Notes: a model not told the origin generated them from the sequence alone. 64,000 nucleotides of DNA from a virus (IMGVR_UViG_3300031629_000002:343-64342), one strand, 5' to 3'. Positions 2,695 through 27,379 are shown, counted from the first letter of the stretch. Made by a program: numbers and translations.

Positions 2695-4758
2695 TCAACC
2701 CGTTATCTCATTTAGTTCGTCTTCGCTCATGCCGTGGTGGTCGATTAAATCGCCACTATCGTTCTTTAGTCTTGATATGGCCGAAGCGTTGCCACTTCGT
2801 GCGGCCTCGACTACCTCACTCACATAATCCTTGCTGGATGAACCGGAAATATATTTGTCGTAAGTTTTGGCTGGGCCGTCACTCATTGTTTCGTTTTTTT
2901 TTGACTCGGCCCTTGCATTACTGCGGGTTTCAGCCGCCGCCGTGCTTGCAGGGGCTAATGGGACTTTCTTTGGATTCTTTGGTCTTATCCTTGCTGGCTG
3001 TTTATTGGCTCTTTCTTGAAAAACATTCTTACCACCCGTTTGCCCTGCACGCTTGGTGGCAGTAGTCTTCACTGCCTTTGCTTTTGTTTTTGGAGTGAGT
3101 TTGACTTCCTTTGCGGCCTTAGCGGGTGTTGCTTGCTTCTTAGATGGTGGCTTGTGAGTCCCTCTTGTCATTGGTGGTTGTGTGTCCGGCTTGTTCATCA
3201 ATTGTTCAAGTAAATCCGGTTTGGTGGCTTCTTTGCCTTTTGGGGTATTAGCCACGGCTTTTGCGGGTGATACCTTCTTAGCGGCCTTTGCGGCTGGTGT
3301 TGCCTTCTTAGCGGCCTTTGCGGCCTTTGCGGCTGGTTTCTTCTCATCCACGGCGGCTAATGCCTTTGCGGCTGGTGTTGCCTTCTTTTCTTTTGGAGGT
3401 TCCTTCTTGGCTTCGGTTGGATCGACGCTTCTATCAGCAACGGCCTTTTCACGGCGGTTCTTCTCGTTCAAGCGTCCACTTTGACTTCGACCACCCGGCC
3501 CTTGCTTGCCCTTGTCGTCATCGTTACGATCATTGACTTCATTGAAGCCCATGCGCTTTCCTCTTTCGGGGCCGACCAAATCTCCTGTCCAGTTTTGTTC
3601 ATCATTCGCATACTGCGGCAATTGCCTATCTTCGCTGGCAATTGGTGGTGAATTGTCACCAAGAAGTCCCTTTACGCCTTTACCACCTGTTGGTAGTGGT
3701 TTGGTTTCGGGTATTTCCTCGAACTCGGCATCGGGGGCTTGAGATTGTTTGTTACCCGCATTTGGCTTCCACTTATTATTCTCATAATCCCAATTTTCAT
3801 ACACTCGGTTTTGGCCGGGTGTCACATCTCGACCCCATTCGGAGATTTCGGTTCCGAAGTCTCCCGGTTTTGGATCACCATATCTCGGTGGGTTTGCTTG
3901 AGTTTGCTGTGACCCCTCTTCTCCGACCATTCGGTCATAGAAGCCGTCATCGGGTTGTTCTCCCATGGCTTCAAAGCCAGCATCGGCTGAACCACTGCTG
4001 TTCATGTCCATTCCGTCATCGGTAGGTTGAAGACTGGGTGGTGCGCCCTGTGCGGCCTCCACTGCTGGGTTTTGTTGTGCATCCCACTTGTCCCACTGTT
4101 CAAGATCTTCTTGTGTGCCACGACCCCGTATGTATTCCCGTGAAGGGAAGTCTTGGCCGGGTTCGGTGTTCCTATCCTGTTGCCATCGTTTGTAAGTGGG
4201 ACTCATATTTGCTACTGGGGTATTGTTCCATGAAACCATTGGTGGTTCTTCGGTAGTTTCCGGTTGAAGTCCCGGTGGTGTAGCCTGTGCTTCTTCCACA
4301 GAACCGGCTTGCGGCTTTGGGTTTCGCTTGAACTTATCCATAAATCGACCCATCATCCCTTTCTTATTCGGGTCACGGGTTTCTTGTTGTCCTGCTTTGA
4401 AGTTCGCACCCATGCCCTTTGGTGGGGCTTGAGCAGGTGGTCGTTCTTGTCCAAATGTAGTGGAGCCTTGTGTTGGATCACCAAACATTCCGCCGGTAAT
4501 AGATTCAGCCGTGTCGCCACCTTGAGGTGTTGCTTCCTGTGCCATAGAATCTACACGCTTCTTTTCATCTTGGTCGGCATAGAATTGTCGGTGGCTGTTA
4601 AAGGCTTCCATCTCTTCGGCGGATAATTGAGGTGGTGCCTTGATAACATGTTCCCATACCATTGAAAACATATCATCATTCTTTGGTGCCTTTCGTAGTG
4701 GTTCCTTGCCAATCATTTCAGCACGGGCTTTGAGTAACATGTCGTCGTATCTGTCCAT
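2695..4758 (-). CDS. Large low-complexity protein (acidic N-half, K/A-rich histone-H1-like C-half); candidate internal virion/DNA-binding protein
   Basis: 687 aa with PAAKAAKAAKKATPAAKAAKK repeats; motif variant DDMFSMVWEHVIKA near the N-terminus; directly upstream of terL. Confidence 0.7.
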   Translation of the reverse strand: MDRYDDMLLKARAEMIGKEPLRKAPKNDDMFSMVWEHVIKAPPQLSAEEMEAFNSHRQFYADQDEKKRVDSMAQEATPQGGDTAESITGGMFGDPTQGSTTFGQERPPAQAPPKGMGANFKAGQQETRDPNKKGMMGRFMDKFKRNPKPQAGSVEEAQATPPGLQPETTEEPPMVSWNNTPVANMSPTYKRWQQDRNTEPGQDFPSREYIRGRGTQEDLEQWDKWDAQQNPAVEAAQGAPPSLQPTDDGMDMNSSGSADAGFEAMGEQPDDGFYDRMVGEEGSQQTQANPPRYGDPKPGDFGTEISEWGRDVTPGQNRVYENWDYENNKWKPNAGNKQSQAPDAEFEEIPETKPLPTGGKGVKGLLGDNSPPIASEDRQLPQYANDEQNWTGDLVGPERGKRMGFNEVNDRNDDDKGKQGPGGRSQSGRLNEKNRREKAVADRSVDPTEAKKEPPKEKKATPAAKALAAVDEKKPAAKAAKAAKKATPAAKAAKKVSPAKAVANTPKGKEATKPDLLEQLMNKPDTQPPMTRGTHKPPSKKQATPAKAAKEVKLTPKTKAKAVKTTATKRAGQTGGKNVFQERANKQPARIRPKNPKKVPLAPASTAAAETRSNARAESKKNETMSDGPAKTYDKYISGSSSKDYVSEVVEAARSGNASAISRLKNDSGDLIDHHGMSEDELNEITG

Positions 4759-4764
4759 TTGAAA

Positions 4765-5700
4765 TCACCTTTGCATTTGCTTGCGGAGCATAATATGTCC
4801 GATAGAATCGTGAATGCGTTCAGCCGAAGCGAACTTCATGTTTGTTGGTTGTCCACCAGCCGCACGCATTCCCATGTTTGTATTTGCTTGATTGAAGCGG
4901 TCAGTCTGTGCTGTGGCGGCTGTGTTTGCTTTGTTGCGGGCACCCATTCCTGTGGAACCCATACCGGCTGTTAAACCGCCTGTCATAACATCAGCGAACT
5001 TACCCATACCAGATCGATTCTTCATCCAAGACTGTTTGTCGCCGCCTTTTCCTGCTTGTAATGCTTGAGCGTCAGCACCAAAGGCCATAGTTTGGGCCGC
5101 TTCTTGCATTTTGTTTGGTGCGGCGGCGGCTGGTGCGGCGGCGGCTGGTGCGGCGGCTGGTGCGGCTGGCCCTGCTGGTGCGGCGGCGGCTGGTGCGGCG
5201 GCGGCTGGGAGTGGGACGGCGGCTGGCCCTGCTGGTGCGGCGGCGGCTGGGAGTGGGACGGCGGCTGGCCCTGCTGGTGCGGCGGCGGCTGGGAGTGGGA
5301 CGGCGGCTGGCCCTGCTGGTGCGGGAACTGGTGGGGTGAGGGTTGGTGCGTTTCCTTGTGTGAGAGCCGTCTGTTGCTCCCTTCCTCTTTCGGATTGGAG
5401 GTTTCTTACTTGATCATTAGCGTATTGATTTGCTGAACCACCTATTGCGGCTTGGGCGGAAGGTTCTGCGTTATTGAATGCCCTTTTGGCTTGACCTCCG
5501 GCCATTTTATCGCTTACTGTGTTTTTGACTTTTGATGCGGCACCAGCAACAGCACCGGGAGTATTTGCTATGGCGGCGGCAGTGGATGTAATGGCGTTGC
5601 CAACCTTGTCCATCCTTGCTCCTTTTTGAAAAGCCTCTCGTTCAGCAATCATTCTTGCTCTCGCCATTCGATCTGCACTAAACTCTCTTCTACTTACCAT
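4765..5700 (-). CDS. Ala/Pro/Gly-rich hypothetical protein with tandem repeat
   Basis: 311 aa ORF containing (PAAAAPAGPAAVPL)n; GGTGA SD-like motif upstream. Confidence 0.75.
   Translation of the reverse strand: MVSRREFSADRMARARMIAEREAFQKGARMDKVGNAITSTAAAIANTPGAVAGAASKVKNTVSDKMAGGQAKRAFNNAEPSAQAAIGGSANQYANDQVRNLQSERGREQQTALTQGNAPTLTPPVPAPAGPAAVPLPAAAAPAGPAAVPLPAAAAPAGPAAVPLPAAAAPAAAAPAGPAAPAAAPAAAAPAAAAPNKMQEAAQTMAFGADAQALQAGKGGDKQSWMKNRSGMGKFADVMTGGLTAGMGSTGMGARNKANTAATAQTDRFNQANTNMGMRAAGGQPTNMKFASAERIHDSIGHIMLRKQMQR
5117..5322. repeat. Coding tandem repeat (42-bp unit about x3, plus GCGGCGGCGGCTGGT subunits)
   Basis: Unit GCTGGCCCTGCTGGTGCGGCGGCGGCTGGGAGTGGGACGGCG is directly repeated. 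Confidence 0.9.
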
Positions 5701-7732: not shown

Positions 7733-9402
7733 CGCTTGCTGGCCCCCGCAAATGCGACCGGCATTAGCGTGGTGTCTTCAAACTTCCACCCTTTGAGGTT
7801 CTCGGTCGGGCCGGTTGGGGCACTGTTTCTTTCCTCACTTGCTTGACTTCCTCTCTTAGCGTCAGCGTCATGTTCGGGTGTTGCCTTTGTTAATTTTTCT
7901 ACGGCGGTAAGGAGTTTAGTCAATTGCTGTTTTAGTTTTTGGAGTTCGTTTAATTTGAAGCCACTGATGTCAGTTCCTCGGAGGCCAAGTTTGGCACCCT
8001 TCTCCATTTTCAAAGCGTCCCCACTAAGAGGGTCGTGTATTAGTGACCCTTCTCGGTCAGCGTTCTTTGGTTTTTTGAATGATGTGCCTTTGCTGGATGA
8101 AGGCTGTGAACCCATACGGGTTCCTCGCCCACTCATACCGATAGTTTGCACCTTTTCGCCAGTGATACCACGGGTGTCAGCGTGTGCCGACATTCCAGTA
8201 GGGAGTGACCCCATTTCACGGCGGAACTTCTCGGAGGCTAATTTGCGCTGGTAAGCAACAGGATCACGAAGACGCAAAGGCATATCCTTTGCCCGTGGGT
8301 TGCCACTAAACATACGGCGAGGTGCAAAGGCTTGACGCTTAGTATGGCGAGTGAGGTTCTGTTCAGTCGAAGCGGCACGGCGGGAGGTCTTGCTTTTTGG
8401 CTGACGGCTTGCTTCTTGCTTGCCTTTTTTGGCCTTGCGCCTTCGCTCTCGCTTATGCTTCTTTTTAGACTTCTTTTCATCCTCTTCGGATTCTTCATCC
8501 TCTTCATACTTACGCCCCTTTTTCTTTCGCTTTGATTTTGTAATATCGGAAATGAATACGGTGTCGGATGATGCTTGGATGTCTTTGTTCCAATCCTCCG
8601 GTAGTTCGCCAACCGGGGTAGGTGCGAACCATTTGAATGAATCTTCGGGCCAACCACCAAGCGGGTGAGGTATTTGTTCTTTGATTTTTTGTTGGGCTTC
8701 TAAGGCTTGATGTGGTTTTATGTCAGCCCCGGATGCGAAACCCGTTGATCTTGGCCCCATCATACCAGCGTCCCCTAATTCAATTAAGTCGTGAAGCATG
8801 TAGCCTTGAGAAGTTTTTCTTTCTTCGTCGGTCATATCTACCGCCCATTGGTCGTCCATCTGATCAGCCGACATTTGTTCCATGTCGGCAATCATCTCTT
8901 CTCTTGTTGGGAGGTCTTTGTCTCCATCGTTCTTCACCAACGACCAAGCGTCTTCAAATGCGTCGTTGCTACGACCGAATACCATTCCCGGCCCTTCACG
9001 CCGAACAGAACCAACGCTGGCACCGGCTGAAATACCCATACCGTTTCGATGGCCCATATCAACACCCATAGCCGATTCAAGCAATTCGCTTTCACCGTTC
9101 ACCATAGGTGTGTCATTTAGTGTTTCGGCCATTTCCTCCGCATGGATTGAAATGTGTGGGAGGTCGCCCTCCATCTCTTTGAGTGCTTTTTTGCGGCGTG
9201 TCGCCGGATCCATCTGTTCTCTTGTTTCATGTGAAGCCGCACCAAATTGGCTGATATGCGACAAACCGTCAGCATTTTCATTTGGGTTCACATCGTAATC
9301 GCCCATCATCTCACGGGGATTATGCCCTCCTGTGAACTCTTGAACCCGTATGGATGTATCATTGGGGTTAAGGTTGGGGGCTTGCGGGGGCATTTCAATC
9401 AC
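7729..9402 (-). CDS. Hypothetical protein with basic/acidic tracts and internal AFEDAWSLVK motif
   Basis: 557 aa; KSKRKKKGRKYEEDEESEEDEKKSKKKHKRERRRK block. Confidence 0.75.
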   Translation of the reverse strand: MIEMPPQAPNLNPNDTSIRVQEFTGGHNPREMMGDYDVNPNENADGLSHISQFGAASHETREQMDPATRRKKALKEMEGDLPHISIHAEEMAETLNDTPMVNGESELLESAMGVDMGHRNGMGISAGASVGSVRREGPGMVFGRSNDAFEDAWSLVKNDGDKDLPTREEMIADMEQMSADQMDDQWAVDMTDEERKTSQGYMLHDLIELGDAGMMGPRSTGFASGADIKPHQALEAQQKIKEQIPHPLGGWPEDSFKWFAPTPVGELPEDWNKDIQASSDTVFISDITKSKRKKKGRKYEEDEESEEDEKKSKKKHKRERRRKAKKGKQEASRQPKSKTSRRAASTEQNLTRHTKRQAFAPRRMFSGNPRAKDMPLRLRDPVAYQRKLASEKFRREMGSLPTGMSAHADTRGITGEKVQTIGMSGRGTRMGSQPSSSKGTSFKKPKNADREGSLIHDPLSGDALKMEKGAKLGLRGTDISGFKLNELQKLKQQLTKLLTAVEKLTKATPEHDADAKRGSQASEERNSAPTGPTENLKGWKFEDTTLMPVAFAGASKR

Positions 9403-9414
9403 TCACTATATGGG

Positions 9415-9741
9415 TTATCGTTTTGCTTCTTTAGCGGCTTGCATTCTCTTGAGTCGTTCTAATAAATCTGGATCTCTCGGCATCCCAGCATTGTTTGATG
9501 GGACGACATCGGGTCGCCCCGACGATGAAAGAACTCCGTCGAGTGAACCTTCTTTGGGTAGGTGTGGATTGTTTTTGACGATAGACCAGCCTGTGCTGAA
9601 TGCTCGGCCAAGAGATTTGGCGACTTTTTTAGCAGGGTCTTTTGTATTAGATTCACGCTTGCCGCCACATGCTATACACGGTTCTTCACCCATTCTCATA
9701 TGTGGACATCCCATGTCAAAGGTTTTCGTTGGTTCGGCCAT
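9415..9741 (-). CDS. Small Cys-containing protein with AFSTGWSIVK motif
   Basis: Start moved to MAEPTK (GGTGTGA SD-like motif upstream); CPH...CIAC. Confidence 0.65.
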   Translation of the reverse strand: MAEPTKTFDMGCPHMRMGEEPCIACGGKRESNTKDPAKKVAKSLGRAFSTGWSIVKNNPHLPKEGSLDGVLSSSGRPDVVPSNNAGMPRDPDLLERLKRMQAAKEAKR

Positions 9742-9746
9742 ATGTA

Positions 9747-10052
9747 TCACACCTTCCATGGGCACGGTGTCCCGGATTTCCACGCTAACCCCGGAGATCT
9801 GCCGCATTTTTTACACGATGCAGTAGTATCGTAGCCCGAATATGGCGGGGTTGTTACTTTTCCGCCACATTTTTTTCCTTCTTCTTTAATCACAGACCAG
9901 CCGACGCTGAACGCCTTTTCAACCCTATCCGGGTGCGGCTGAACATCTTGATAGCCGCATTCCGAATCGGGGCATCTCACCCATGTATCGTCAGTGCGAA
10001 CCATTTGTTTATCACAGTCGTTGCATAGTCCTATTTTGTCTTTCTTTGCCAT
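9747..10052 (-). CDS. Zn-ribbon protein with AFSVGWSVIK motif
   Basis: CNDC...CPDSEC...CKKC; TAATG overlap with the upstream stop. Confidence 0.7.
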   Translation of the reverse strand: MAKKDKIGLCNDCDKQMVRTDDTWVRCPDSECGYQDVQPHPDRVEKAFSVGWSVIKEEGKKCGGKVTTPPYSGYDTTASCKKCGRSPGLAWKSGTPCPWKV

Positions 10053-10474: not shown

Positions 10475-10480
10475 TTTCAA

Positions 10481-11041
10481 TCATCCCTCCATATCTTCGT
10501 CACAGTTTAAGCAATATCCCCAATAATTAGGGCCTTGCTTTGTTTTTTCCCTCTCACGCTTCAATTCCTGATCGCTCATACCTTGAAACCGACCTCCTTT
10601 TTCTGCTATTTCCTGTAAGTTATCTTCTTTTGTATCTATTTCCAACTCTTCGGATAGGCACATGGGGCAAGACCTTGGTGATTTTGATTTCACCACAGAC
10701 CAACCTGCGCTGAACGCTCGGTCAGTGGATGCTTTCTTAGAACCCCATTTCGGACGGCGGTTGCACTTTGAGCAATTATCATCACCGCACCCACCACCAC
10801 ATGAGGAACAATTACCTTGTCCACAGTAAGACCAATCTTTCTTGTCGCATTTGTCTTCACAATTCATTGTAGCACAAGCGGCCTTTTTCACGACAGGTTT
10901 GAAATCCTCTTCTCGTTCCATGTAACCGCATTTATTACAAACGAAATTAACATGACCTTCTTCTTCTCTTATCATGCCGCCATGTGGATTTCCACATTCG
11001 GGACACTCGACAGGCTCTCCAATAAATCTCGCTTCAACCAT
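10481..11041 (-). CDS. Cys-rich multi-Zn-ribbon protein with AFSAGWSVVK motif
   Basis: CPEC..CNKC, a Cys-rich middle, CPMC..CLNC; start MVEARF overlaps the upstream stop. Confidence 0.7.
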   Translation of the reverse strand: MVEARFIGEPVECPECGNPHGGMIREEEGHVNFVCNKCGYMEREEDFKPVVKKAACATMNCEDKCDKKDWSYCGQGNCSSCGGGCGDDNCSKCNRRPKWGSKKASTDRAFSAGWSVVKSKSPRSCPMCLSEELEIDTKEDNLQEIAEKGGRFQGMSDQELKREREKTKQGPNYWGYCLNCDEDMEG

Positions 11042-11744: not shown

Positions 11745-11771
11745 GTTTTACCGATAGGGGCTGGGTTTATT

Positions 11772-12216: not shown

Positions 12217-12227
12217 TGTTCATCACC

Positions 12228-12896: not shown

Positions 12897-12906
12897 TATT
12901 CTCACC

Positions 12907-14593: not shown

Positions 14594-14598
14594 TCACT

Positions 14599-15526: not shown

Positions 15527-16036
15527 ATGACGACCCCAAATGTGCCGGACGCTGTGACCGCTATGCGCTCATATCAATATGTTGTAAATGCCTCACCGAA
15601 CAGCAGTTCTCTCCTTTCTTCGTGGATCCAACGCCACACCGATGAGTCCTTAGCCGCCGACTTTGACTATAAAGCGGCAATCGCAGTGTTGGCGTATTTC
15701 AACCACCCACTTTACACTACTACTACGAACCAACCAACAGGCACAGCCGCATGGGTTTCACTGATGAATGGGGCCGAAAGCATACTTCAAGCCGAGGCGT
15801 CATGGATAGACGACCAATTACTTATTGCCAACATCACACGCCCACAGCGTTTGTTCGATAGCGACATCACTTGGTTGAGCCAGTGGGCGGCGGCAAACAA
15901 TGTGTCGGCTAATACCGAAACCGCATACTTGCTGAACTCTTTGATTCTTCAATTACAAATCTGTGAAGGAACTAATGGTGCTACAAATGCGTCCAGTGTT
16001 TCACACACTGTTCACACATCACCGACAGTCCCTTAG
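15527..16036 (+). CDS. Hypothetical protein, divergent from the RHH/GTPase operon
   Basis: Likely start MTTPNVP; fills the gap between minus-strand genes; stop overlaps the convergent gene. Confidence 0.6.
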   Translation: MTTPNVPDAVTAMRSYQYVVNASPNSSSLLSSWIQRHTDESLAADFDYKAAIAVLAYFNHPLYTTTTNQPTGTAAWVSLMNGAESILQAEASWIDDQLLIANITRPQRLFDSDITWLSQWAAANNVSANTETAYLLNSLILQLQICEGTNGATNASSVSHTVHTSPTVP

Positions 16037-18060
16037 AGAATATCGTTCAACCGTTGCTGGTCGAGGTTGATTGGGAATAAAGGCTTCATGTTTTTATCGT
16101 AGTCGATGTTGCCGCCAGTTTTCAAACGCACTTGTTGGTTTTTGCTTCCAGCGATATGAGGGTTATATGAAACAGGTTTGTCACCCCAACATGCTTCGCA
16201 GTTATGATCCATACACGAACCACCCGCTATTGATACAGGGCAAATGTGTGTTCCGGGGGTGTCTTCGGCTCCAACGAACGAAGCGGTGACATTGGGATGT
16301 TCTGTCGCTTGTTGGAATGCCGATGATAATTTGGGTAGGCCCAATTCTTGGTTTCGGTCATTATCGGCCCCTTGACCGACAAACGGTGCGCTCAATGAAA
16401 CAGACAGGTTGTCGGGTATGGCGGTGTCATAGTCCCTGCCACTTGATTGAAGGAACATGTTCAGTGCTTGGGCTTCACGGGTAGGCAACCATGCCCTACT
16501 TTTCAAAGGACTCTTTGCACCTATTGTTCTCATGGTATCGGAGAGAAGGGAGAGATGTTTGGCTTTGTCTTCACTTGTTTTACCTTGTAAATCACCCGAC
16601 TCAAAGAAGCGGAATAAATCGGTTCCGTGGTCTAACACTGATGAGGACATCCTATTCCCCAAAGCCGAACCATAGCGAACCATGTCTTCGATGTTTTCGG
16701 GAGTCCTCAAAGCGATGGCGTTTCGCCAATTGGCTATTTGTTTTTGATTCATAGACGCACGACCATGATCGTGAGCATAACAGTTCTCACAGGTAGCACC
16801 TGCAACCTCTCTCATTTTACTACCGACACCACACATGTGAGTAGGGAAGTTTTGATGCGCTCCGGGCATTTTTGAATTATCACCCAATGGGCTACCTATT
16901 GTTCTTTCAGCCTGTTGTTTCATATTCCCGCCTTGTATCAGTGTTCTAAAATCGGGAAAGTAGTCGTCTATTCCTTCAAGGGGATAGTTCACATTGAAGT
17001 CTGTGTCGAATTGGTCGGTCTTATCTTTGTTCGCTTCGACCCAATTGAAAACATCACGCCCGTGACCCGGCCCCTTTCCGCTTTGGTTCAACCTTTTGTC
17101 CCACCAACCTATTTCACCGGGATCTCCCAGTGCTTTGATGAGAACCTCACCAAGACTGAATAATGAATCACTTCGTCGGACAACATTGGTGAAATCTATG
17201 CCCTTTGGAAAATACATACCGTGTGGGGTGACAATACCCGTATTACCATCGAAGCGTGTTCCCTGTCCAATAGGTATTGGTTCGGCCATTTCACCAACAG
17301 GGCCAGCAGGGAGCATGGCGAAATCACCAGTTCCCGATATTTGATGAGGTAATGGTCGGCCCATGTGTTCCGTTTGAGTTTTACTTCTTCGCCCGAACAG
17401 TGGGTGTATTCCCAAGTCCTTGTGATCCTCGACAGGTTCTTCCTTTACATCATCCCGATAAACGATATTACCTTGTTCATCATGGTAAAATGGGCGGTAT
17501 GTCACCAAGTCGGCTTGCCAGCCCTCTTCATCAAGAACTCTTGCGTTGCCGTTGGCGTCCATTTCCACATCATAATTATGGACATCTTGGGGTAGTTCGT
17601 CGCCTAAAAGGTATTGTTGGGATTCGGAAACATCAAGCCGACCGGAAATCGGGGCGTGTAATGTGCGACCCGGCCCCCTTGCTGGCAGTTTTCTTTCGCC
17701 CTCCCTCCAACGCTTATTGCCATGCAAAGCGTCACGCTGTGAGTTTCGATCAACAGACACCATAGGATCATGTATAGGAACCTGTGAAGCGACTTCGGTG
17801 CTTACAGGCGCACCCCCTCCAACAAGCCTTCGTTGAACCGCCATCATACCCGGCCCTCTCTTAGCGGGGTCTTTTGGATCCGATGGGAACTCATCAAAGT
17901 GTTCGGGCCTTAGACCCGGAGGCAAACGCAAATCACGACCCGGTGATGCTTGACTTATGTTGCGAAAGGAGGCGATAGAGTCGTCTTTTGGAACATTACC
18001 TGCGGCGTCTTCTTTCTTACCACGGGCGGTATATTTCCAGTCAAACGGCCCTGTCATCAT
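16033..18060 (-). CDS. Protein with C-terminal Gp88-like (putative Fe-S) domain
   Basis: SKMPG..C....CENCYA...FRFFESGD..WLPTRE..PDNL..CP....C...CEACW....Y.PH matches the phage gene-product-88 family pattern as I recall it; start at 18060 overlaps the upstream stop. Confidence 0.7.
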   Translation of the reverse strand: MMTGPFDWKYTARGKKEDAAGNVPKDDSIASFRNISQASPGRDLRLPPGLRPEHFDEFPSDPKDPAKRGPGMMAVQRRLVGGGAPVSTEVASQVPIHDPMVSVDRNSQRDALHGNKRWREGERKLPARGPGRTLHAPISGRLDVSESQQYLLGDELPQDVHNYDVEMDANGNARVLDEEGWQADLVTYRPFYHDEQGNIVYRDDVKEEPVEDHKDLGIHPLFGRRSKTQTEHMGRPLPHQISGTGDFAMLPAGPVGEMAEPIPIGQGTRFDGNTGIVTPHGMYFPKGIDFTNVVRRSDSLFSLGEVLIKALGDPGEIGWWDKRLNQSGKGPGHGRDVFNWVEANKDKTDQFDTDFNVNYPLEGIDDYFPDFRTLIQGGNMKQQAERTIGSPLGDNSKMPGAHQNFPTHMCGVGSKMREVAGATCENCYAHDHGRASMNQKQIANWRNAIALRTPENIEDMVRYGSALGNRMSSSVLDHGTDLFRFFESGDLQGKTSEDKAKHLSLLSDTMRTIGAKSPLKSRAWLPTREAQALNMFLQSSGRDYDTAIPDNLSVSLSAPFVGQGADNDRNQELGLPKLSSAFQQATEHPNVTASFVGAEDTPGTHICPVSIAGGSCMDHNCEACWGDKPVSYNPHIAGSKNQQVRLKTGGNIDYDKNMKPLFPINLDQQRLNDIL

Positions 18061-19226
18061 TGTCCCCCCTGTTTCAGCACAGCCCACCCTTGTTCAAAGG
18101 CGTTTTGGGGTTCGGAGAGTTCAAAGTCCAATAATGCTGTCTGTGAACCTTCTTTCGGGAGGAACTTACCGTAGCCGTAGGTCTGCAATAATTGATTGAT
18201 AGAATGACCGTCAAAGTCGTCCACATTCGCAACACCTATCATTTCGGGTTTGGGGCCACGCTTTTCGGGGTTTCCCGATACATTATCGGGGCGTTGAATG
18301 ACGGTAGTGTCAAGGCCAATATCCTTGTATTGTTCGATGGGGTCGATACTGTCAAAGGCCAATACAGGCTGGCCTTCTTGTATTCTTTCCTCTAATTGGC
18401 GGAACATCTGTCTTGGATCGAAACCCTCACCGTAAGTGCCGGGTTGCCCCGAATAAGGAGGGTCATTGATAACTCCTGCTTTATTGTCAATATCCCATTC
18501 GGCCAGTGCTTCGGCACCATCGCCTTGGCGCACATTCACATTTTTGAGAGGTTCCCTGTAATTCAACAGGTTTTCCATTGAGGGTAAGGATTGCATGGTT
18601 TTGACATCGGGTGGGTTGCTCGGCCACAGCATTCCTTCGTGTTCATTACCAACTTTGTTATGGCGGATTTGTCCCACATGTCCCGCACGCTTATTGCGAA
18701 AAAGGTTGAGTGCTTGGGCAAGGCGCATAGACTCGGAGCGTGGTTCACCATCTCTCATCAATGTATCATAATAAGCCAAGGTATCGGGGGGGACAGCATC
18801 TCCACGCTTTCTTTCAGTGACATTCGGGCCTCTTATTTGTGTTCTCCAATGGTCTTTCAATTGTTGATCGTTTAGACCCTGCAACATACTCCAATCAATG
18901 TCAATACCTTGTGTTCCTTGATTAGACATGGCCTCAACCAAAGCGGCGGTTCCGGCATCCATTTCATTGTAGTCGCTCGAACCCTGTGGCAAAATGTTGA
19001 GTATGTCATTAGCAGGGCCGCCATAGGGAACTTGTAGGCCATCAATACCGGCTTTATCGGCAAAGTTCCTTTGAACCATCCTATAATGTGGTTTATTTTT
19101 GGAGCCAGTGTGTCGAACGATGGGTGCCATACCTTTAGCACCCGACATGTCGGCACGCATAGCGGCCATTTCGGCGGCGTCAATACGGCGACCTGTGCGG
19201 TGTCCCTTGTATCTCGGCAAAACCAT
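18057..19226 (-). CDS. Dam-like (D12-class) DNA adenine methyltransferase, divergent
   Basis: PIVRHTGSK (cf. LKWAGGK), VPYGG (cf. EPFxG), catalytic INDPPY; C-terminal AFEQGWAVLK motif. Confidence 0.7.
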   Translation of the reverse strand: MVLPRYKGHRTGRRIDAAEMAAMRADMSGAKGMAPIVRHTGSKNKPHYRMVQRNFADKAGIDGLQVPYGGPANDILNILPQGSSDYNEMDAGTAALVEAMSNQGTQGIDIDWSMLQGLNDQQLKDHWRTQIRGPNVTERKRGDAVPPDTLAYYDTLMRDGEPRSESMRLAQALNLFRNKRAGHVGQIRHNKVGNEHEGMLWPSNPPDVKTMQSLPSMENLLNYREPLKNVNVRQGDGAEALAEWDIDNKAGVINDPPYSGQPGTYGEGFDPRQMFRQLEERIQEGQPVLAFDSIDPIEQYKDIGLDTTVIQRPDNVSGNPEKRGPKPEMIGVANVDDFDGHSINQLLQTYGYGKFLPKEGSQTALLDFELSEPQNAFEQGWAVLKQGGQ

Positions 19227-19649
19227 TTACTCTTCCTCCCTTCGTTTGCTATGAGTCCATTCATCGGCCATAGCATCCCACGGCCCCGAAGTTTCGCTCT
19301 CGACCGCTTGTCGGAACATTTCTTCTTGGGTGTATTCAACCATGTTCGGGGCACTGATTTGCCCTATCCCGTAAAACACATCAGCAGGTAGTGTCATCCC
19401 ACTGCTTGGATCGTGAACCATTTTCTTTCCATCCTCACCCATGAAGGTTGTAAAGGCGTGTCCATAGGAACGACCGGCCAATGGCCCAACGGTTGGGGAC
19501 ACTTGGGCGTGAACCAGTGTATGGTTTGGATTAGCGCACATGTAATTGTATGCGTTATGGTAACAACTCCCACCTTTGTTTTCATCGGGTAGGTCGTCTA
19601 AATCCTCGACGCCTTTCAAAACACGAAAACCGGCATCAATGGCGTTCAT
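19227..19649 (-). CDS. Putative transglutaminase/papain-fold Cys-His enzyme
   Basis: GSCYHNA ... LVHA ... YGHAF ... VHDP; N-terminal motif variant MNAIDAGFRVLK. Confidence 0.55.
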   Translation of the reverse strand: MNAIDAGFRVLKGVEDLDDLPDENKGGSCYHNAYNYMCANPNHTLVHAQVSPTVGPLAGRSYGHAFTTFMGEDGKKMVHDPSSGMTLPADVFYGIGQISAPNMVEYTQEEMFRQAVESETSGPWDAMADEWTHSKRREEE

Positions 19650-20920
19650 TGATTCTTCCCCCAGTCAATGAGGTCACGCCATGGTGGTTTTGAAAATGGT
19701 GCGTGGAATTGTGAAGCAAAGGAGGGAGGTGTTTTTCCACTTGTAAGGATTTCACGCTCTCTATCCTGTGCTTCAAGTATTGCTTTCATCCGTGATACAG
19801 GGATTGCGTCTTCACCATCTCTCATTTGAGAAAGTGATTGATCTCTCACTCCAACCCTCGTTGGTGTGTGAGGGGTTAAGCGAGTTCCTTCGGCAATTGA
19901 CATACCTACATCCCCTCGGTGTGGATAGCGGGCGTCGGCTTGATGCCAATTCTGTATTCTTTCTTGAGGGGTCATTCGTTCACGGAGTGTGCTGGGGCTT
20001 ATGTCCAATTTGTGGTCGATGCCTTGTTCATCCAACTTACGCCCTAAACCCTGCACTGTGGCAAGGCCACCGGGACTCAAATAGGATTCTTTGATACGGC
20101 CAGTGTTTTCCAACAAAGCACCCAATGTGGAATACCCTAAGCCCATTCCAGTGAATGCTGGGTTCACCTCAACCATAGGGCCGCCCCCCAATCCATCTAT
20201 TGTCCCTGCTGAAACAGAAGCCATTCCGGCACCTGCCTCACGCCTTTGGTCGAGTGTATTGAGTAATTGGTCTTGAACTACGGAGGCGTATGCTTCTCGC
20301 CAATGTGGGCCGCTTGATTCCATGTTAATACCGATTTCATCGGCTTGCGGAGGGAATGGTCTTTTGTTCATACCCTGTGCGTGGTGTGAATTGAAATAAG
20401 GGAGTTCTGTATCTAAATAATCTTCAACACTATATCCCACTCCGGCGGCGGCCATTTCTTCTCTAAGCCATTCTTCGTCATTGTCAAAGTCCTCAATACG
20501 CAAACCAACATCCTCGGCGGTTTCCCATCCTTTAGTGCGTGCATAGGTTTCTTTGTCATCCAGCCCCTCAACATGGGAGATTGCTTGCTTGATTGGTATT
20601 TGGCCTCCAACCCGTAGTCCTACGCTTGGTGGCAAATTACCGAACTGTGTTGATAATTGGTGTGGTTCTATATTGAGGTTGTATTGGAAATCGTCACGAC
20701 CGACGGTCTTTTGCATGGTGTCCCATGCTACTTCAAACGGATCTGCTGATGCGGCTATGTCATCGTCGCTGGAATGGTCGTATTCCTTTTTCTCGGTGTC
20801 TTCTTCGCCTTCAATAGTAATAGGCGACCCAAGCAAGTCCATCGGCTCAATAGGTGCCGGTTGTAGCCTTATCCGGGGTCGCCCGTCGGGCGGCATAGGG
20901 CGAGGGCTGATACTCGGCAT
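19646..20920 (-). CDS. Protein with GNAT-like segment and PFEVAWDTMQK motif
   Basis: VEVNPAFTGMGLGYSTLGALL...YLSPGG resembles GNAT motif A; start re-set to MPSISP. Confidence 0.6.
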   Translation of the reverse strand: MPSISPRPMPPDGRPRIRLQPAPIEPMDLLGSPITIEGEEDTEKKEYDHSSDDDIAASADPFEVAWDTMQKTVGRDDFQYNLNIEPHQLSTQFGNLPPSVGLRVGGQIPIKQAISHVEGLDDKETYARTKGWETAEDVGLRIEDFDNDEEWLREEMAAAGVGYSVEDYLDTELPYFNSHHAQGMNKRPFPPQADEIGINMESSGPHWREAYASVVQDQLLNTLDQRREAGAGMASVSAGTIDGLGGGPMVEVNPAFTGMGLGYSTLGALLENTGRIKESYLSPGGLATVQGLGRKLDEQGIDHKLDISPSTLRERMTPQERIQNWHQADARYPHRGDVGMSIAEGTRLTPHTPTRVGVRDQSLSQMRDGEDAIPVSRMKAILEAQDREREILTSGKTPPSFASQFHAPFSKPPWRDLIDWGKNQ

Positions 20921-21027
20921 AGGAGGGCTATACCCTGTCGGTTTCAAATAGATTGTTATTGGTGTGTTAGGTGTGTGAACACTCACAAGGTTGATAAGCC
21001 ACTGCTGATGAGCGTTGGTTGAGCAAC

Positions 21028-22596: not shown

Positions 22597-23309
22597 ATCT
22601 CGTCTTCTGTCGGCCATTCCCATGGTTGTAATTGATCACTGCTTATTTTAGGTGCGAAGTGTTTGCCATCTGTTGTCACACGGGGATTGGATCGTGTTGA
22701 AGCACTGTGTATAGCACCTCTATCTACCATCTTGTCCCAAAAGCCAGCCTTGCTGGGTTCGACCTTTGTAGCGTGAGCATGAAAAGAGTCTAATTCTGTT
22801 TGACCTGCCATTTCCTGTTCAAGTTCCGCAATCATCTCACGCAGGTATGATTCACCGAGGCCACCATCCCGCACAGTGGTAGCGACTTCAAAGTGGTGAA
22901 CTTCTACCTGCCCTGTATCGAAGTTCGTTTGAGCGACACCTCTTGCCATCCCATCTTTGGATTCCCAAGAAATATCACCAAATGGCGATGCTGGTGTCAT
23001 TAGATCTGACATGTAATCGGGAAACATTTCTTTTTCCCGTGCAGTAGGTGTTTTGTTGGGGTCTATCGTGTCTTCCCATTTTTCTTCGGGGTAGAAGAGG
23101 GGTGACTTGAGCAATCGCCAAGCCATGTCCATTGGCCCGCCTTTTTTGACAGCAGGACATTGGCACTTATCCGTTCCACTCTTGGACTTGCCACATTTTT
23201 TACAATCCCATTCAACCTCAATCGGAGGGGGTAATTTTTTGTTATCCCAATCTACCTCAATCGGGAGGGACTTCATTAGTAATGCGAAGGCGGTTTCAAA
23301 GGCGGTCAT
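22593..23309 (-). CDS. Signal-motif protein: Zn knuckle plus GNAT acetyltransferase-like domain
   Basis: N-terminal MTAFETAFALLMK; internal GPMDMAWRLLK; FEVATTVRDGGLGESYL...AGFWDKM. Confidence 0.7.
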   Translation of the reverse strand: MTAFETAFALLMKSLPIEVDWDNKKLPPPIEVEWDCKKCGKSKSGTDKCQCPAVKKGGPMDMAWRLLKSPLFYPEEKWEDTIDPNKTPTAREKEMFPDYMSDLMTPASPFGDISWESKDGMARGVAQTNFDTGQVEVHHFEVATTVRDGGLGESYLREMIAELEQEMAGQTELDSFHAHATKVEPSKAGFWDKMVDRGAIHSASTRSNPRVTTDGKHFAPKISSDQLQPWEWPTEDEI

Positions 23310-24064
23310 TCATAACCACCCGCCCTCCATTCATCGGCTTCTTTGATTTGTTCATCAGTGGGATAGCGGATAACTTGCATTGAACCGGAACAATTGTTTT
23401 TGATTCCATCTACTGGTTCTTTGAGCGAAACCCCGCAAACCCCACTATTGCGATAAGCAATCCTGCCACAGTCACGGCATTGTCGCAATTTGGATATAAT
23501 ACCCTTGATTAAAGCCCATGCTTGTTCGACGGCGGTCGTTTGCGGGTCGGCGGAGGCAGTGAAATAAGACGAAGGATGACGGCGATTTGCCTTAGAAGCG
23601 CAATCATCCCATTCAGTAAGTAATTGGCGTGCGAATGCCTGTAATTTTTCATTCAATCCGGTTTTTGCCGCTTGCGGGCCTAAAAGACCCTGTGTATGAC
23701 CCTCTTTGTCATAATTGACACTGTGCTTCTCACCAAACCTGCCGCTTGCCCATTCTTCTAATTTTTCACGGAGGTTGTCGCACGCATTCTGTGTGTGGTA
23801 TTGTAGGGTGTCATAGGTTTCCGGGTAGTCGGGATCGTCGTCGCCCATAGCATGAGGCATGTCCCATTCTTCGTGACCCCAAGCACTTGTTTCATAATAC
23901 CATTTTGTGCTAATTTGAATACAACATTCGTCAGCAGGGAGGCTGTCATCATCATCCCAACCGTCCTTATCGGGTATTTTCATCGGCGGTGGTGGTGATG
24001 ACATTTCCGGCGGTTCCAATGTCGCATTTTTGATAAGTGCGAACGCTTGTTCAAAGGCGGTCAT
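23306..24064 (-). CDS. Signal-motif protein with C-terminal Zn ribbon
   Basis: Likely start MTAFEQAFALIK (ATGA overlap); internal AVEQAWALIK followed by CRDC..C..C. Confidence 0.75.
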   Translation of the reverse strand: MTAFEQAFALIKNATLEPPEMSSPPPPMKIPDKDGWDDDDSLPADECCIQISTKWYYETSAWGHEEWDMPHAMGDDDPDYPETYDTLQYHTQNACDNLREKLEEWASGRFGEKHSVNYDKEGHTQGLLGPQAAKTGLNEKLQAFARQLLTEWDDCASKANRRHPSSYFTASADPQTTAVEQAWALIKGIISKLRQCRDCGRIAYRNSGVCGVSLKEPVDGIKNNCSGSMQVIRYPTDEQIKEADEWRAGGYE

Positions 24065-24543
24065 TCTTTGTCCCACTCCTGCACATGGCCCACTGGCCTC
24101 TCTTCCCATAGCCGCTTATCATTAGCCCTACCTTGATTTTTATTACGGTGAATAAACCACCCTGCTTCTTTGAGCGATTCCTCGTCAATTTCCTTTCCTG
24201 CCAATTCTTCCTCCGAATCATCAACAAGGCTAATGTGTTCGGGAGCCACCTCACCAGATCCAAGGACATTCCATCCCAAATCCTTAACATCATCTCGGCT
24301 GTTTATGTGATCATCATCAATATACAACAAAGCAGGAGGACTACCATGAGAAATAGAACGACTTGCGGCATAGGCTCTTGCCATGAGTTCATCGGGAGTC
24401 ATGTAAAATGATGGGTCGCCCATGAGCGCACCACCGGGATTCATAGCCTTGCCACCTTCTTGGAGGATTTTCTTTGCCGCCTCCATGGTAGTTCCGTGAT
24501 ATGGCATTTTCAGTAAAGCGAATGCTTGTTCAAAGGCGGTCAT
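24061..24543 (-). CDS. Signal-motif protein: putative ADP-ribosyltransferase-fold domain
   Basis: MTAFEQAFALLK-MPYHGTT..AAKKILQEG...FYMTPDELMARAYA shows the H-Y-Y ART-like spacing. Confidence 0.7.
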   Translation of the reverse strand: MTAFEQAFALLKMPYHGTTMEAAKKILQEGGKAMNPGGALMGDPSFYMTPDELMARAYAASRSISHGSPPALLYIDDDHINSRDDVKDLGWNVLGSGEVAPEHISLVDDSEEELAGKEIDEESLKEAGWFIHRNKNQGRANDKRLWEERPVGHVQEWDKE

Positions 24544-24737
24544 TCTTTCCCACCTCTCCATCCGAAGCCATATCCCTTGCTACAATCGGTCGGGCATTGA
24601 ATACCACCAAGCATTGAATTGTAGTTCACCCATTCACCAGCGTCAATGGTTCGACCACAGGTCTTACAATTGCCAGTGTATTTAGCCTTAAAGGGGGCTT
24701 TCAGTAGCGAAAAGGCTTTGGTAAATGCTGTCACCAT
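24540..24737 (-). CDS. Signal-motif Zn-finger microprotein
   Basis: MVTAFTKAFSLLK-APFKAKYTGNCKTCG...CPTDC. Confidence 0.75.
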   Translation of the reverse strand: MVTAFTKAFSLLKAPFKAKYTGNCKTCGRTIDAGEWVNYNSMLGGIQCPTDCSKGYGFGWRGGKE

Positions 24738-25480
24738 TCTTCATCCTCTTCCTGTTCCTGTCGCTCTTGATATTCTGCGAATCTCTTGCCAGCATCAAGC
24801 CAGCGTTGTTGCCACTCGGATTTAGGCACTTTTTCGGCTTCATCGGGATGAACCCAATTTGACCCACGCCCGAACTCGCTGTGCATGTATTGAGTGTCCG
24901 GGTCGTTCCAGTTCTGTTCTTTAGGTATTGATGCCAACCCTTTAGGAAAAATGCCCCTGCTTGCTAAAAGCCCAAGCATGTCAGCACTGTTCTCACGGGC
25001 TGGGCCAAACGACCCACTCTTACCGTATTTTGAGAAGTTCTTTCGGTATTCTTCTAAAGCATCCAAAAGCCCTGCACCCATAGACCTTCTTCGTAAATCC
25101 GATGGAACAAAGACACGCTCGATTTTGTTATCAATAACGGCGGCGAATGGGTTTTTTTGACCCAAACCGAACTGTTGCTCGGCTTCTCTATCTTCATCTA
25201 TTGCGTCCATAGGGATAACTGCGGCATCCATCCGATCTATGTTGTTATGCTTGTGCCCAAAACCACGCTTGTCATCTTCACCTATCCATTCTCGCTGTGG
25301 TTCGATGTTGATTGGGAGTGTCCGGTCGTCTGTGGGGTCATAGAAGTCACCAACATACTTTTGCGCTGGGGCGTGGTCGTCGTCACCCTCCGTGAACTCA
25401 CCCTCTAAAGGGCGCACTGAACCGGGAACGAAGGGCATTTTCAGTAGTAAGAAGGCTTGGTCGAAGGAACTGATTGTCAT
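24731..25480 (-). CDS. Signal-motif protein: GNAT-like domain
   Basis: MTISSFDQAFLLLK-MP; IERVFVPSDLRRRSMGAGLLDAL. Confidence 0.65.
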   Translation of the reverse strand: MTISSFDQAFLLLKMPFVPGSVRPLEGEFTEGDDDHAPAQKYVGDFYDPTDDRTLPINIEPQREWIGEDDKRGFGHKHNNIDRMDAAVIPMDAIDEDREAEQQFGLGQKNPFAAVIDNKIERVFVPSDLRRRSMGAGLLDALEEYRKNFSKYGKSGSFGPARENSADMLGLLASRGIFPKGLASIPKEQNWNDPDTQYMHSEFGRGSNWVHPDEAEKVPKSEWQQRWLDAGKRFAEYQERQEQEEDEEW

Positions 25481-25596: not shown

Positions 25597-25600
25597 TTTC

Positions 25601-27379
25601 TCACTCCATATCGGGGTAGTCCAATAACTCGGCGTCTTCGGAACGATTGCGTCTTATGAAGTCCCTTTCCCATTCTTCCATACCATTATTCCAGTCTGCT
25701 AAATCAATTTCCCTCTCCATGAGATCATCGGTTTCCGATGTGGACATTTGCCCTTGGAACTCATCGGGTAGTGCTATTTTACCCGACGCACCTTGTTGAA
25801 GGCGTTTTAATGCCTCCGACATGTGTTGATCTCGTTCATGGTCTTCATAGTAATATCCGGTTGTTCCTAAAGCATTTACTGGTTGAACTGCTCTTGGTGC
25901 CACCTCATCCCCTTCGTCGTTGTAATGCCAGCCTCTATGGGCACTCTTCTCTTCTTCGGGTGTCATATCATGGTCGGGCATCATCGAAGCAATCCACGCA
26001 TAAAGTTCGTCTTCATCCATAAACTCGCCATCCATACCTTCAAGGTCGTCTTGAATGTAACCCATTGATTGCGGGTCGGCTGTAACGAACGACGCAGGGT
26101 TTCCGTCTTCATCGAAGCCGGGGTCGGGTGCCACTTTGATTGCTGGGTAGGTTTGGCGCATAGGTGGAACCCCGTGATGACTTAATCCCAAATTAGATAG
26201 AATACTTTGATTAAACGACGATTCGGGAACAGCAGATCCATACATCGCATAGGCCAATGCTTCTTCCTTGTCCTTTGTCCAATATCGGAACTCGTCGTTG
26301 ATTCTGTCACCGCCGGAGTAAAGTGGCCCCGTGACCTTGCCGTATGTGCCTTGTGGTGTATCAACGCTCCACGGTGCCTTGATTAAATGCCAAGCCTCAT
26401 CAAATGCACCCATAGGTTCACCCGCTTGCTTAATATCCCCCTGTGATTCTATCGGTCGGGGCATTTTTACCTGTTCCCCGCCATGTTGCCTTTGGTATTT
26501 GGCTGGCACTTTATTCCCTCTTGCTGTTGTCGAAGGGTGATATGAGAGGCGGTCATTTACTTCCTTTTCTTCTCCCGCAAATTGTCCCGAATAAGCACCT
26601 ATTTCGTGTGCCATATTATAATTCGCTCTCGGTAATTCCCCTTCTGCAACCGCACTACTTATGGGCTGGTCTATTGCCGCATGGGTTCCTTCGTGGGCGA
26701 GAGTGGATGTTATTTCGGGTGTTTTATTTTCGGCTTCTTCCGCCGAAAGCATCTCGTCAGTCCACCCATATTTACCAAAAGCCGCTAAATTGACACCATT
26801 CATGGTTTCATAATCTTGCATACCACCCAATTTTTGCGGTGCCTTACTATCGAGATCCATTACATTGTTATTTCTGTCCACTCGACCTCGGTCTATTTCG
26901 TTGCCCTTCATATCAAGCAAGTTTGAACTTCCGTGGAACTTTGCTGTATCGGATTGAACAGTAGTAGTTCTCGGTTGAGAAGCACCTCTTCTAAAAGGAA
27001 CATCTCCTTGCTGGGCAAACTCCCCTCGTTCCGCCCGTTCCTCTTGGGTAAATGGTTCATTGGCGGTTCTTACATCATCATCCATCACTCTTGTCGAAGG
27101 GCCACCATATTGAGTGTTCTCGGCGGTCATAGGAATACGCTGTTCTGTTCCCGTTGCACGCTCTTTGTTGTGTTTTTCACTCTCCATGTTATTGTAATCC
27201 GCTTGAAACTTGCGCTCTTTAGGATGCCACCAGCGTGGTTTTTGATAATCAACGGTGGTGGTGGCGTTTGCTTCCGGCCCCCAATAAGTTCCTGCGCTTG
27301 ACCCATCGTCCATACCGTCTTTACGGGGGAAATACATTTCCGATTTCATCAAATGCCACACTCTATCAATTGCGCTCAT
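25601..27379 (-). CDS. Two-module signal-motif protein: HExxH metallopeptidase-like plus possible ART-like domain
   Basis: MSAIDRVWHLMK; AHEGTH...HEIGAY; internal GEPMGAFDEAWHLIK followed by LYSGG...YWTKDKEEALAYA. Confidence 0.7.
   Translation of the reverse strand: MSAIDRVWHLMKSEMYFPRKDGMDDGSSAGTYWGPEANATTTVDYQKPRWWHPKERKFQADYNNMESEKHNKERATGTEQRIPMTAENTQYGGPSTRVMDDDVRTANEPFTQEERAERGEFAQQGDVPFRRGASQPRTTTVQSDTAKFHGSSNLLDMKGNEIDRGRVDRNNNVMDLDSKAPQKLGGMQDYETMNGVNLAAFGKYGWTDEMLSAEEAENKTPEITSTLAHEGTHAAIDQPISSAVAEGELPRANYNMAHEIGAYSGQFAGEEKEVNDRLSYHPSTTARGNKVPAKYQRQHGGEQVKMPRPIESQGDIKQAGEPMGAFDEAWHLIKAPWSVDTPQGTYGKVTGPLYSGGDRINDEFRYWTKDKEEALAYAMYGSAVPESSFNQSILSNLGLSHHGVPPMRQTYPAIKVAPDPGFDEDGNPASFVTADPQSMGYIQDDLEGMDGEFMDEDELYAWIASMMPDHDMTPEEEKSAHRGWHYNDEGDEVAPRAVQPVNALGTTGYYYEDHERDQHMSEALKRLQQGASGKIALPDEFQGQMSTSETDDLMEREIDLADWNNGMEEWERDFIRRNRSEDAELLDYPDME

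Follow-up and report, generated by a model that had tools for sequence, protein, structure and literature searches.

A short helical tag recurs at the ends and internal joints of unrelated proteins in a magrovirus-like contig and may serve as a capsid-targeting address

The stretch of DNA analyzed here (the window) spans 64,000 nucleotides of the virus contig IMGVR_UViG_3300031629_000002, positions 343-64342, and makes up nearly all of a 64,342-base contig that has no terminal repeats. Its left arm contains an array of minus-strand genes, interrupted by a thermosome gene on the opposite strand, whose products share a short peptide that we refer to as the tag. About twenty unrelated proteins have this same peptide at their start, in their middle or at their end. 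The tag, with consensus [TS]AF[DE]xA[FW]x[LI][LIV]K, is an amphipathic helix of approximately 11 residues with the pattern Phe/Met-x-x-Ala/Gly-Trp/Phe-x-Leu-Leu-Lys. A preliminary description of the region, made from the sequence, quoted 11 of these peptides, and all 11 are present in the minus-strand open reading frames (ORFs) it named. Coordinates of the tag copies and of two landmark genes are collected in Table 1; genes are named below by their first coordinate.

The 32 proteins of the left arm (8861 residues) contain 22 strong copies (at least 10 bits, counting that of the ORF at 9415). The full tally is 14 N-terminal, seven strong internal and one C-terminal copy, plus three weak ones. 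Applied to a six-frame translation of the window, a strict regular expression matched 21 times on the minus strand but never on the plus strand. A profile derived from 19 copies returned 21 ORF hits at 10.1–16.8 bits, with the next best at 1.9, a separation that is circular in that the seeds score themselves. Shuffling of residues offers a comparison: none of 200 shuffles produced any copy of at least 10 bits (best 9.5), and for copies located 20 or more residues from the ORF start, eight were observed vs. a mean of 0.0155 in 2000 shuffles (maximum 1). The internal copies are thus far more frequent than in shuffled left-arm proteins, the comparison that the preliminary description had proposed. 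The residue following the core is Lys in 60 of 81 matches and Arg in one, and the net charge of the tag is usually zero or negative. No Pfam or PHROG family is common to the tag bearers. The copies use differing synonymous codons, which places the conservation, and the selection behind it, at the level of the protein.

The three weak copies, in genes 2695, 19646, and 16033, score no more than 1.0 bits or escape the profile; for all three, a better tag is found at the homologous place in a relative. Orthologues of gene 2695, for example, keep the tag at the matching place, in canonical form in L045 and L047. The share of polar residues around internal copies is no different from that of the whole proteins, and is therefore uninformative as to whether the copies lie in linkers.

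Two other kinds of signal were considered and set aside, in agreement with the preliminary description, which had argued from position independence against a role in translation or secretion. A signal acting on DNA or translation is ruled out by the varying synonymous codons together with the internal and C-terminal copies. A secretion signal peptide (Sec/Tat or archaeal class III) was rejected because copies also occur internally and at a C-terminus, and because the tag has 9–11 residues with an acidic residue and no long hydrophobic core.

Table 1. Tag copies and landmark genes in the window. Positions are counted from the first nucleotide of the window; aa, amino acids; scores are from the tag profile.
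Feature	Coordinates	Strand	Gene and position	Score (bits)	Remarks
Large terminase	1252-2688	minus			Terminase_6C
Weak internal copy, FSMVWEHVIK	4639..4668	minus	2695-4758 (687 aa), aa 31-40	-1.1	Lys/Ala/Pro-rich tail; adjoins large terminase
Strong internal copy, FEDAWSLVK	8932..8958	minus	7729-9402 (557 aa), aa 149-157	13.7	
Strong internal copy, FSTGWSIVK	9574..9600	minus	9415-9807 (130 aa), aa 70-78		Cys-rich
Strong internal copy, FSVGWSVIK	9885..9911	minus	9747-10052 (101 aa), aa 48-56	13.8	Between two Cys clusters
Strong internal copy, FSAGWSVVK	10688..10714	minus	10481-11059 (192 aa), aa 116-124	12.7	Zinc ribbons
Degenerate internal copy, FSLGEVLIK	17134..17160	minus	16033-18087 (684 aa), aa 310-318	not detected	Before GP88 domain
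Strong C-terminal copy, FEQGWAVLK	18072..18098	minus	18057-19226, aa 377-385 of 389	14.7	Methylase-like; 4 residues after Lys
N-terminal copy, IDAGFRVLK	19614..19640	minus	19227-19649, aa 4-12	10.6	
Weak internal copy, FEVAWDTMQK	20708..20737	minus	19646-21052, aa 106-115	1.0	ASADP before
Thermosome (group II chaperonin)	21019-22596	plus			Cpn60_TCP1, E 8.7e-166; mid-array, opposite to tagged genes
N-terminal copy, FETAFALLMK	23271..23300	minus	22593-23309, aa 4-13	10.3	One residue extra
Strong internal copy, MDMAWRLLK	23106..23132	minus	22593-23309 (238 aa), aa 60-68	14.3	
N-terminal copy, FEQAFALIK	24029..24055	minus	23306-24109	15.8	True start probably Met16
Strong internal copy, VEQAWALIK	23504..23530	minus	23306-24109, aa 194-202	14.4	ASADP before, 65-aa Cys-rich end after
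N-terminal copy	24508..24534	minus	24061-24561	16.5	ADP-ribosyltransferase-like
N-terminal copy	24699..24725	minus	24540-24737 (65 aa)	14.8	Small gene
N-terminal copy	25439..25465	minus	24731-25480	12.1	
N-terminal copy, IDRVWHLMK	27344..27370	minus	25601-27379 (592 aa)	12.5	
Strong internal copy, FDEAWHLIK	26378..26404	minus	25601-27379, aa 326-334	15.8	Joint of two cassettes
N-terminal copy	28350..28376	minus	27366-28385	12.0	
N-terminal copy	29174..29200	minus	28382-29215	14.3	
N-terminal copy	29602..29628	minus	29212-29637	14.9	GNAT match E 0.036, below cut-off
N-terminal copy	30120..30146	minus	29634-30161	15.5	
N-terminal copy	30743..30769	minus	30152-30778 (208 aa)	10.1	Second HExxH protein
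N-terminal copy	31264..31290	minus	30775-31305	16.8	
N-terminal copy	31764..31790	minus	31296-31799	16.3	Last in array

The position of the internal copies gives clues to their origin. According to the preliminary description, they separate domains, and proteins with two copies are fusions of two cassettes; comparison with homologues supports both statements. For residues 320–592 of gene 25601, 13 of 15 shorter homologues start with the tag, and in an exhaustive phmmer search 24 of 43 hits pair their own residues 1–5 with query residues 323–327, while other hits have the same module after different N-terminal parts. In the AlphaFold model of this protein (mean pLDDT 60), both tags are helical, at residues 3–14 and 325–333 (the latter with a pLDDT of about 81). 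The internal helix follows a stretch with pLDDT below 50 (residues 164–304) and directly precedes a confident domain, a placement at a module boundary; mapping of motif positions against predicted domain boundaries had been suggested as a check. The domain after the internal tag of gene 22593 likewise occurs as stand-alone genes that start with the tag (in L088, L132, L110, and L166), as well as within other fused proteins (L139, tagged at residues 7 and 195). For both 25601 and 22593, the downstream half was thus found as a separate gene, a check that had been suggested.

A G-rich, Shine-Dalgarno-like stretch lies 4–12 bases before the ATG of tagged genes (14 stand-alone genes), and the same in-frame G-rich stretch with an ATG precedes Met323 of gene 25601 and Met60 of gene 22593. 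Ahead of the internal copies, this stretch may be left over from fusion or may serve as an internal start.

The single C-terminal copy in the window was also traced to a joint. In the relative G005, methylase and GP88 form a single protein of 778 aa, and a canonical tag is located at its residue 389. Gene 18057 stops four residues past the tag that aligns with this methylase-GP88 joint, and the degenerate copy of gene 16033 (GP88 match, E 2.4e-5) occupies the same alignment columns, at which G001 has a decayed copy. That the copies of 18057 and 16033 both align with the fusion joint of G005 explains why the methylase-like protein ends in a tag, as had been reported for it. The GP88 gene (16033-18087) overlaps the end of the methylase-like gene (18057-19226) by 31 bases, and the first ~300 residues of gene 16033 can be loosely aligned to the methylase portion of fused proteins in relatives, which looks like a duplication or splitting of the fused gene.

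A 200-aa protein of G001 has the tag at its end, three residues before the stop. Its homology with the module that precedes the internal tags in genes 23306 and 19646 extends to the AS[AS]D before them, and the weak copy of gene 19646 shares 50% identity over 22 aa with the C-terminal tag region of this G001 protein. The string ASADP does precede two copies, as had been noted; because the upstream modules are homologous, however, it was inherited with this paralogous module and is not part of the tag. In other families the tag is kept or displaced: the gene 7729 family has a match to the regular expression at the homologous position in 15 of 20 homologue rows, across 54–80% identity, and in homologues of gene 10481, which has weak Pfam zinc-ribbon matches, the offset of the tag differs. 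Other genomes, too, contain unrelated proteins with a C-terminal tag.

Taken as a whole, the alignments indicate that each internal copy once stood at the N-terminus of the cassette that now follows it, and that a C-terminal copy is a remnant left where a fused gene splits, or ends, right after the tag. Cassettes thus move, fuse, and split together with their tags, and those tagged are fast-changing, unrelated accessory proteins encoded on the structural (late) strand of magroviruses.

The window is magrovirus-like, i.e., from a tailed virus of marine Poseidoniales (Marine Group II) archaea with a thermosome, and its gene content, together with that of its relatives, fits that of published magroviruses, of which groups A and D carry a thermosome gene (PMC5434244). 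The left end of the contig truncates the gene adjoining the large terminase; the head genes of this virus and its own prohead protease lie beyond the contig end. The right arm is encoded on the plus strand and includes a helicase-like gene. The closest terminase from a cultured phage is only 27% identical, with none nearer, while terminase relatives were found in 73 IMG/VR loci at 22–93% identity. Relatives of ~100 kb encode a portal (Phage_portal), an SU10-type HK97-fold capsid protein (PF17236), and an S78 prohead protease that continues into a fused, scaffold-like C-terminal part. The protease of these relatives matches Peptidase_S78 (HK97 type), not the T4 gp21 type.

Across the 73 terminase loci, the regular expression gave 50 matches on the coding strand and none on the other. 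A degenerate DNA pattern of the tag was found in at least 150 IMG/VR loci, often in arrays with ~400–700 bases between copies. Among the matches listed, at least 276 copies lie in ORFs no shorter than 50 aa; 177 of these are N-terminal, 82 internal, and 5 C-terminal, with 12 undecidable, and the set takes in some unrelated repeat proteins. The same DNA pattern in 596 billion bases of cellular genomes gave at least 122 loci, nearly all single and mostly within unrelated bacterial families, which by our estimate is roughly the level of chance. The N-terminal form M-T-A-F-D is limited in cells, among the matches listed, to one Poseidoniales single-cell contig and two other loci. Since the cellular matches are scattered at chance level, the tag appears to belong to these viruses, not to cells, and on this genomic evidence is virus-specific.

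The Poseidoniales contig just mentioned (L294/L295, 106 kb, from a single-cell genome) is the sole clustered occurrence of N-terminal tags in the cellular collection, among the matches listed. It is probably a magrovirus trapped in an infected cell, which agrees with the proposed host. A more distant relative, G008 (L456-L460), has a terminase 38% identical to that of the window and is without the canonical tag; examples of a shorter tag in this genome are at 16994-17311, 17647-18000, 24392-24829, and 33682-35841, and its scaffold-like proteins end in a similar Met-Ser/Asp-Trp helix. A word search in the main text of the magrovirus papers PMC5434244, PMC11706807, and PMC10160649 located no account of the tag; their supplementary tables may annotate the genes.

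Several observations link the tag to the virus head. All 57 copies of at least 6 bits in seven genomes are on the strand of the major capsid protein (MCP) and large terminase (TerL) genes, whereas ORFs are distributed about evenly between the strands. Tagged genes lie directly beside head genes in G006, G005, and G001, and the tagged array adjoins the terminase and portal genes without a break and runs in the same direction. A stand-alone tagged protein of 97 aa (L162) shows homology to the tail at the C-terminus of the portal (the last ~40–100 residues): 19 of its 21 hits are ORFs of 595–604 aa, including the G005 portal (L444:16922-18715; E 1e-24), and the two portal-length proteins that were scanned both match Pfam Phage_portal. 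A degenerate tag lies at the junction with the portal tail, so that a tagged cassette has either joined the portal or separated from it. Because the tails of portal proteins usually point into the head, one tag-preceded module would be located there.

Strings resembling the end of the tag are also found in the head proteins themselves. In 62 of 62 close relatives and in three of three distant ones (G003, G006, and G008), the S78 protease domain has [YF]-x-[IL]-L-K at its end, and a variable acidic linker comes next. The pattern small-Trp-x-x-hydrophobic is common to the tags and the conserved C-terminal helix of the scaffold, and L36-K37 of the MCP are invariant, within an N-terminal region that was modeled with low confidence. 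A sequence-based search with the MCP profile found no solved structure. A string F-I-L-K at the protease N-terminus was considered as a tag and dropped, as it lies inside the S78 fold.

If the tag is an address, its bearers are the cargo, and what they resemble becomes relevant. Family searches were sparing: PHROGs gave no family for 32 of 33 proteins (the sole match being the helicase, gene 33715), and Pfam at E up to 1 gave sub-threshold GNAT hints and nothing more. The N-terminal half of gene 25601 (26416-27379) belongs to a family in which HExxH (H229, E230, and H233) and a downstream Glu and His are invariant in nine of nine sequences, and whose members carry up to five tag copies (P0137). 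The zincin-like profile also finds gene 30152-30778, at E 1.6e-7. Pfam assigns the domain to no peptidase family; from its conserved residues, it may be a zincin-like peptidase. Among eight genomes, it was found in only G000 (two genes) and G001 (one gene), compared to seven of the eight for the tag.

The C-terminal half of gene 25601 has weak matches to the ADP-ribosyltransferase (ART) fold in a wide VIA-align search (Z 3.3–3.9, best 3.9), and Foldseek found no PDB match for the 592-aa protein at E ≤0.001. The nearest named Atlas clusters to gene 24061 are ADP-ribosyltransferases (score 0.93), which we treat as a lead only. The protein of gene 18057 is 32% identical over 143 aa to the part of a G001 808-aa protein that matches MethyltransfD12. 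The cargo may thus resemble host-modifying enzymes (ART-like, methylase-like, and HExxH), at the level of a lead. With respect to the labels given earlier, “two enzyme-like domains” in 25601 draws on the conserved HExxH for the N-terminal half and on weak fold matches for the C-terminal half, and “GNAT” and “methylase” have sub-threshold or indirect support. Genes 22593 and 23306 encode two-module proteins; most tagged genes encode a single module.

The reading we favor, and give about an even chance of being right, is that the tag is a portable, position-independent address that targets its bearers to the capsid and is possibly cut after its Lys by the HK97-type head protease, by analogy with known cargo systems. 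The tag would dock its bearer onto a component of the assembling head, either scaffold or capsid protein, and the docked cargo would become trapped within the capsid and be delivered along with the DNA, in the manner of the T4 internal proteins and Alt, which depend on the capsid targeting sequence. The S78 head protease may then cut after the conserved Lys, trimming N-terminal tags and separating fused modules. Docking, not cutting, must be the function common to all copies, because only 1–4 residues follow the Lys in C-terminal ones.

A more specific version is tentative, and we consider it rather unlikely. It proposes a plug-and-play cargo system in which the helix, at the start, joint or end of a protein, docks at the procapsid site used by the scaffold C-terminal helix; the tags would double as recombination joints for the exchange of cassettes, and a changing set of host-modifying enzymes would be delivered into Poseidoniales.

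A number of findings weigh against capsid targeting, or against parts of the evidence for it. In a small systematic test of nine proteins with an internal module that is N-terminal elsewhere, which can also be read in favor of fusion at the tag, the strict tag was exactly at the projected joint in two and was missing at the other seven; on inspection, in a post hoc reading, four of these seven have a variant tag, two a decayed one, and one none. Older joints are degenerate (the G001 808-aa protein, gene 16033, and the portal tails), so that internal copies may often be decaying relics without function. The N-terminal half of gene 25601 is unresolved in the AlphaFold model. The resemblances among head proteins can also be read otherwise. 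The MCP shares just [LI]-L-K with the tag, a string expected about once per such protein by chance (an estimate, not a computed value), and its model is poor (mean pLDDT 61), such that K37 cannot be placed relative to the fold. The F-I-L-K of the protease N-terminus is inside the S78 fold, and the terminal Y-x-L-L-K is at the edge of the Pfam S78 match (residues 17–167); short strings ending in Lys within or at the edge of the protease fold may therefore be structural. The C-terminal copies cannot be labels to be clipped off. Lastly, a thermosome homologue occurs in all seven genomes with the canonical tag, for which capsid targeting offers no account.

This co-occurrence is the starting point for another reading, in which the helix docks its bearers to a hub located outside the capsid, most obviously the viral or host group II chaperonin, or else a host protein onto which effectors would be recruited. 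A thermosome gene lies inside the tagged array (on the opposite strand), and the seven genomes with the canonical tag (G000, G001, G003, G004, G005, G006, and G007) all have a homologue. The tag's hydrophobic residues are spaced i, i+4, i+7, a spacing seen in many helix-in-groove motifs. The thermosome association is, however, confounded by relatedness and drawn from a small sample, and G008 (100% complete by CheckV) is without a chaperonin, as are all four records of its group, and still has an N-terminal Trp-x-x-hydrophobic-Leu/Ile-Lys tag on seven of 129 ORFs, vs. a shuffle mean of 0.063, for a pattern that was defined post hoc. Three of these seven short-tag genes are within the head module, all tags are on the late/structural strand, and a tagged module has been found as a portal tail; we thus judge a hub outside the capsid to be unlikely. 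A further possibility, which we rate as quite improbable, is that the tag chiefly marks where polyvalent proteins are processed: the HExxH (zincin-like) domain, rather than the head protease, would cut there and release modules after translation or injection. The invariant HExxH with downstream Glu and His in nine of nine sequences, the family members with up to five tags, and the prediction that polyvalent proteins of phages, encoded near late genes, are processed by zincins (PMC5512222) are consistent with it; against this, most bearers are single-module proteins with nothing to release, and no Pfam peptidase family claims the domain. As a universal tag protease, the HExxH domain was rejected as the main explanation because it is present in only two of eight genomes, compared to seven of eight for the tag.

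The internal and C-terminal copies could instead be functionless leftovers of recent fusions and splits, two of them perhaps marking internal starts, with only the N-terminal copies at work. The Shine-Dalgarno-like stretches with an in-frame ATG in 25601 and 22593 fit such a history, as does the degeneration of tags at older joints (gene 16033, the G001 808-aa protein, and the portal tails). We nonetheless find it doubtful, given that the gene 7729 family has kept its internal tag in 15 of 20 rows at 54–80% identity, that a preceding Met is lacking for five of the seven strong internal copies, and that unrelated proteins of other genomes also have C-terminal tags. A membrane-targeting amphipathic helix, usable from either end of a protein, would be short, contain Trp or Phe, and be independent of position, all of which describe the tag. 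Membrane-binding helices are basic and tolerate far more variation, though, whereas the tag is highly conserved, has a small residue before the Trp, prefers Lys over Arg by 60 to 1, and has a net charge that is usually zero or negative, making this role highly improbable.

Other genes of the left arm are mentioned for completeness. Three large proteins on the terminase side (2695-7732, minus strand) are mostly low-complexity, and family searches found nothing for them. They are the product of gene 2695, with a histone-H1-like Lys/Ala/Pro tail, that of gene 4765, with Ala/Pro repeats, and that of gene 5690, one stretch of which is Pro/Gln-rich. A 241-aa protein (13868-14593, minus strand) has a P-loop and sub-threshold matches to small GTPase families (E 0.02–0.13). 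The array is closed by an HMGL-like gene (HMG-CoA lyase/pyruvate carboxyltransferase family; 31796-32686, minus strand; E 3.3e-19); G001 has what is apparently the same gene, judged from its N-terminus only, on the other strand.

If the tag is an address, then sequence alone reveals which proteins are likely to be carried into the cell: about twenty here, and well over a hundred distinct tagged ORFs in the sampled relatives. Being independent of position and coinciding with points of fusion, the tag would be an apt illustration of modular cargo exchange, and it would offer a direct experimental handle. Should the plug-and-play version hold true, no cargo-loading code would have been described before for an archaeal virus, and this one would work from any position in a protein. 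Even if the tag has another role, the list of bearers is still a large and unexplained functional class.

Short peptides that load unrelated proteins into a shell have precedents. Encapsulin cargo-loading peptides are short, can be at either end of unrelated cargo, and bind the inner face of an HK97-fold shell. The magrovirus particle differs in being a DNA-filled virion with a scaffold and a protease, where docking to the capsid would be a parallel by analogy. In Staphylococcus phage 80alpha, the capsid and scaffolding proteins share an N-terminal motif, and 13–14 residues are removed at a fixed site (PMC5744158). As in the array described here, one N-terminal sequence is found on non-homologous proteins; unlike the magrovirus tag, the 80alpha motif copies a host ribosomal protein and is cut by the host protease Prp, whereas no host proteins with the N-terminal tag were found among the cellular matches listed, apart from the one likely viral single-cell contig.

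Polyvalent proteins of phages are predicted to be packaged and processed, and fusion to a portal has been used to assign them to the virion (Iyer et al., 2017; PMC5512222). The present array resembles them in the location of its genes by those for late or virion proteins, and perhaps also in combining unrelated effector-like domains in one polypeptide and in a putative zincin-like HExxH domain. The differences are that every magrovirus module boundary has, or once had, one conserved short helix, and that most bearers are single-module; in the text of PMC5512222, a word search for “linker” finds no occurrence.

The comparison that bears most directly on the address proposed here is with T4, whose diverse internal proteins share only a capsid targeting sequence (CTS), which encapsidates them into the scaffolding core (PMC3012670); the cargo includes an ADP-ribosyltransferase (PMC5512222). 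As with the CTS of IPI-III and Alt, a conserved peptide of ~10–12 residues is the sole common feature of diverse, fast-changing proteins, and the final residue of the tag could be the cleavage position of a head protease. The two differ in that the magrovirus host is an archaeon and the protease is of the S78 HK97 type, not gp21 type, and we claim no sequence relation between them. Unlike the CTS, which is N-terminal only, the magrovirus tag, known here from genes alone, is also internal (seven strong copies) and C-terminal (one), and travels with the cassettes as they are shuffled.

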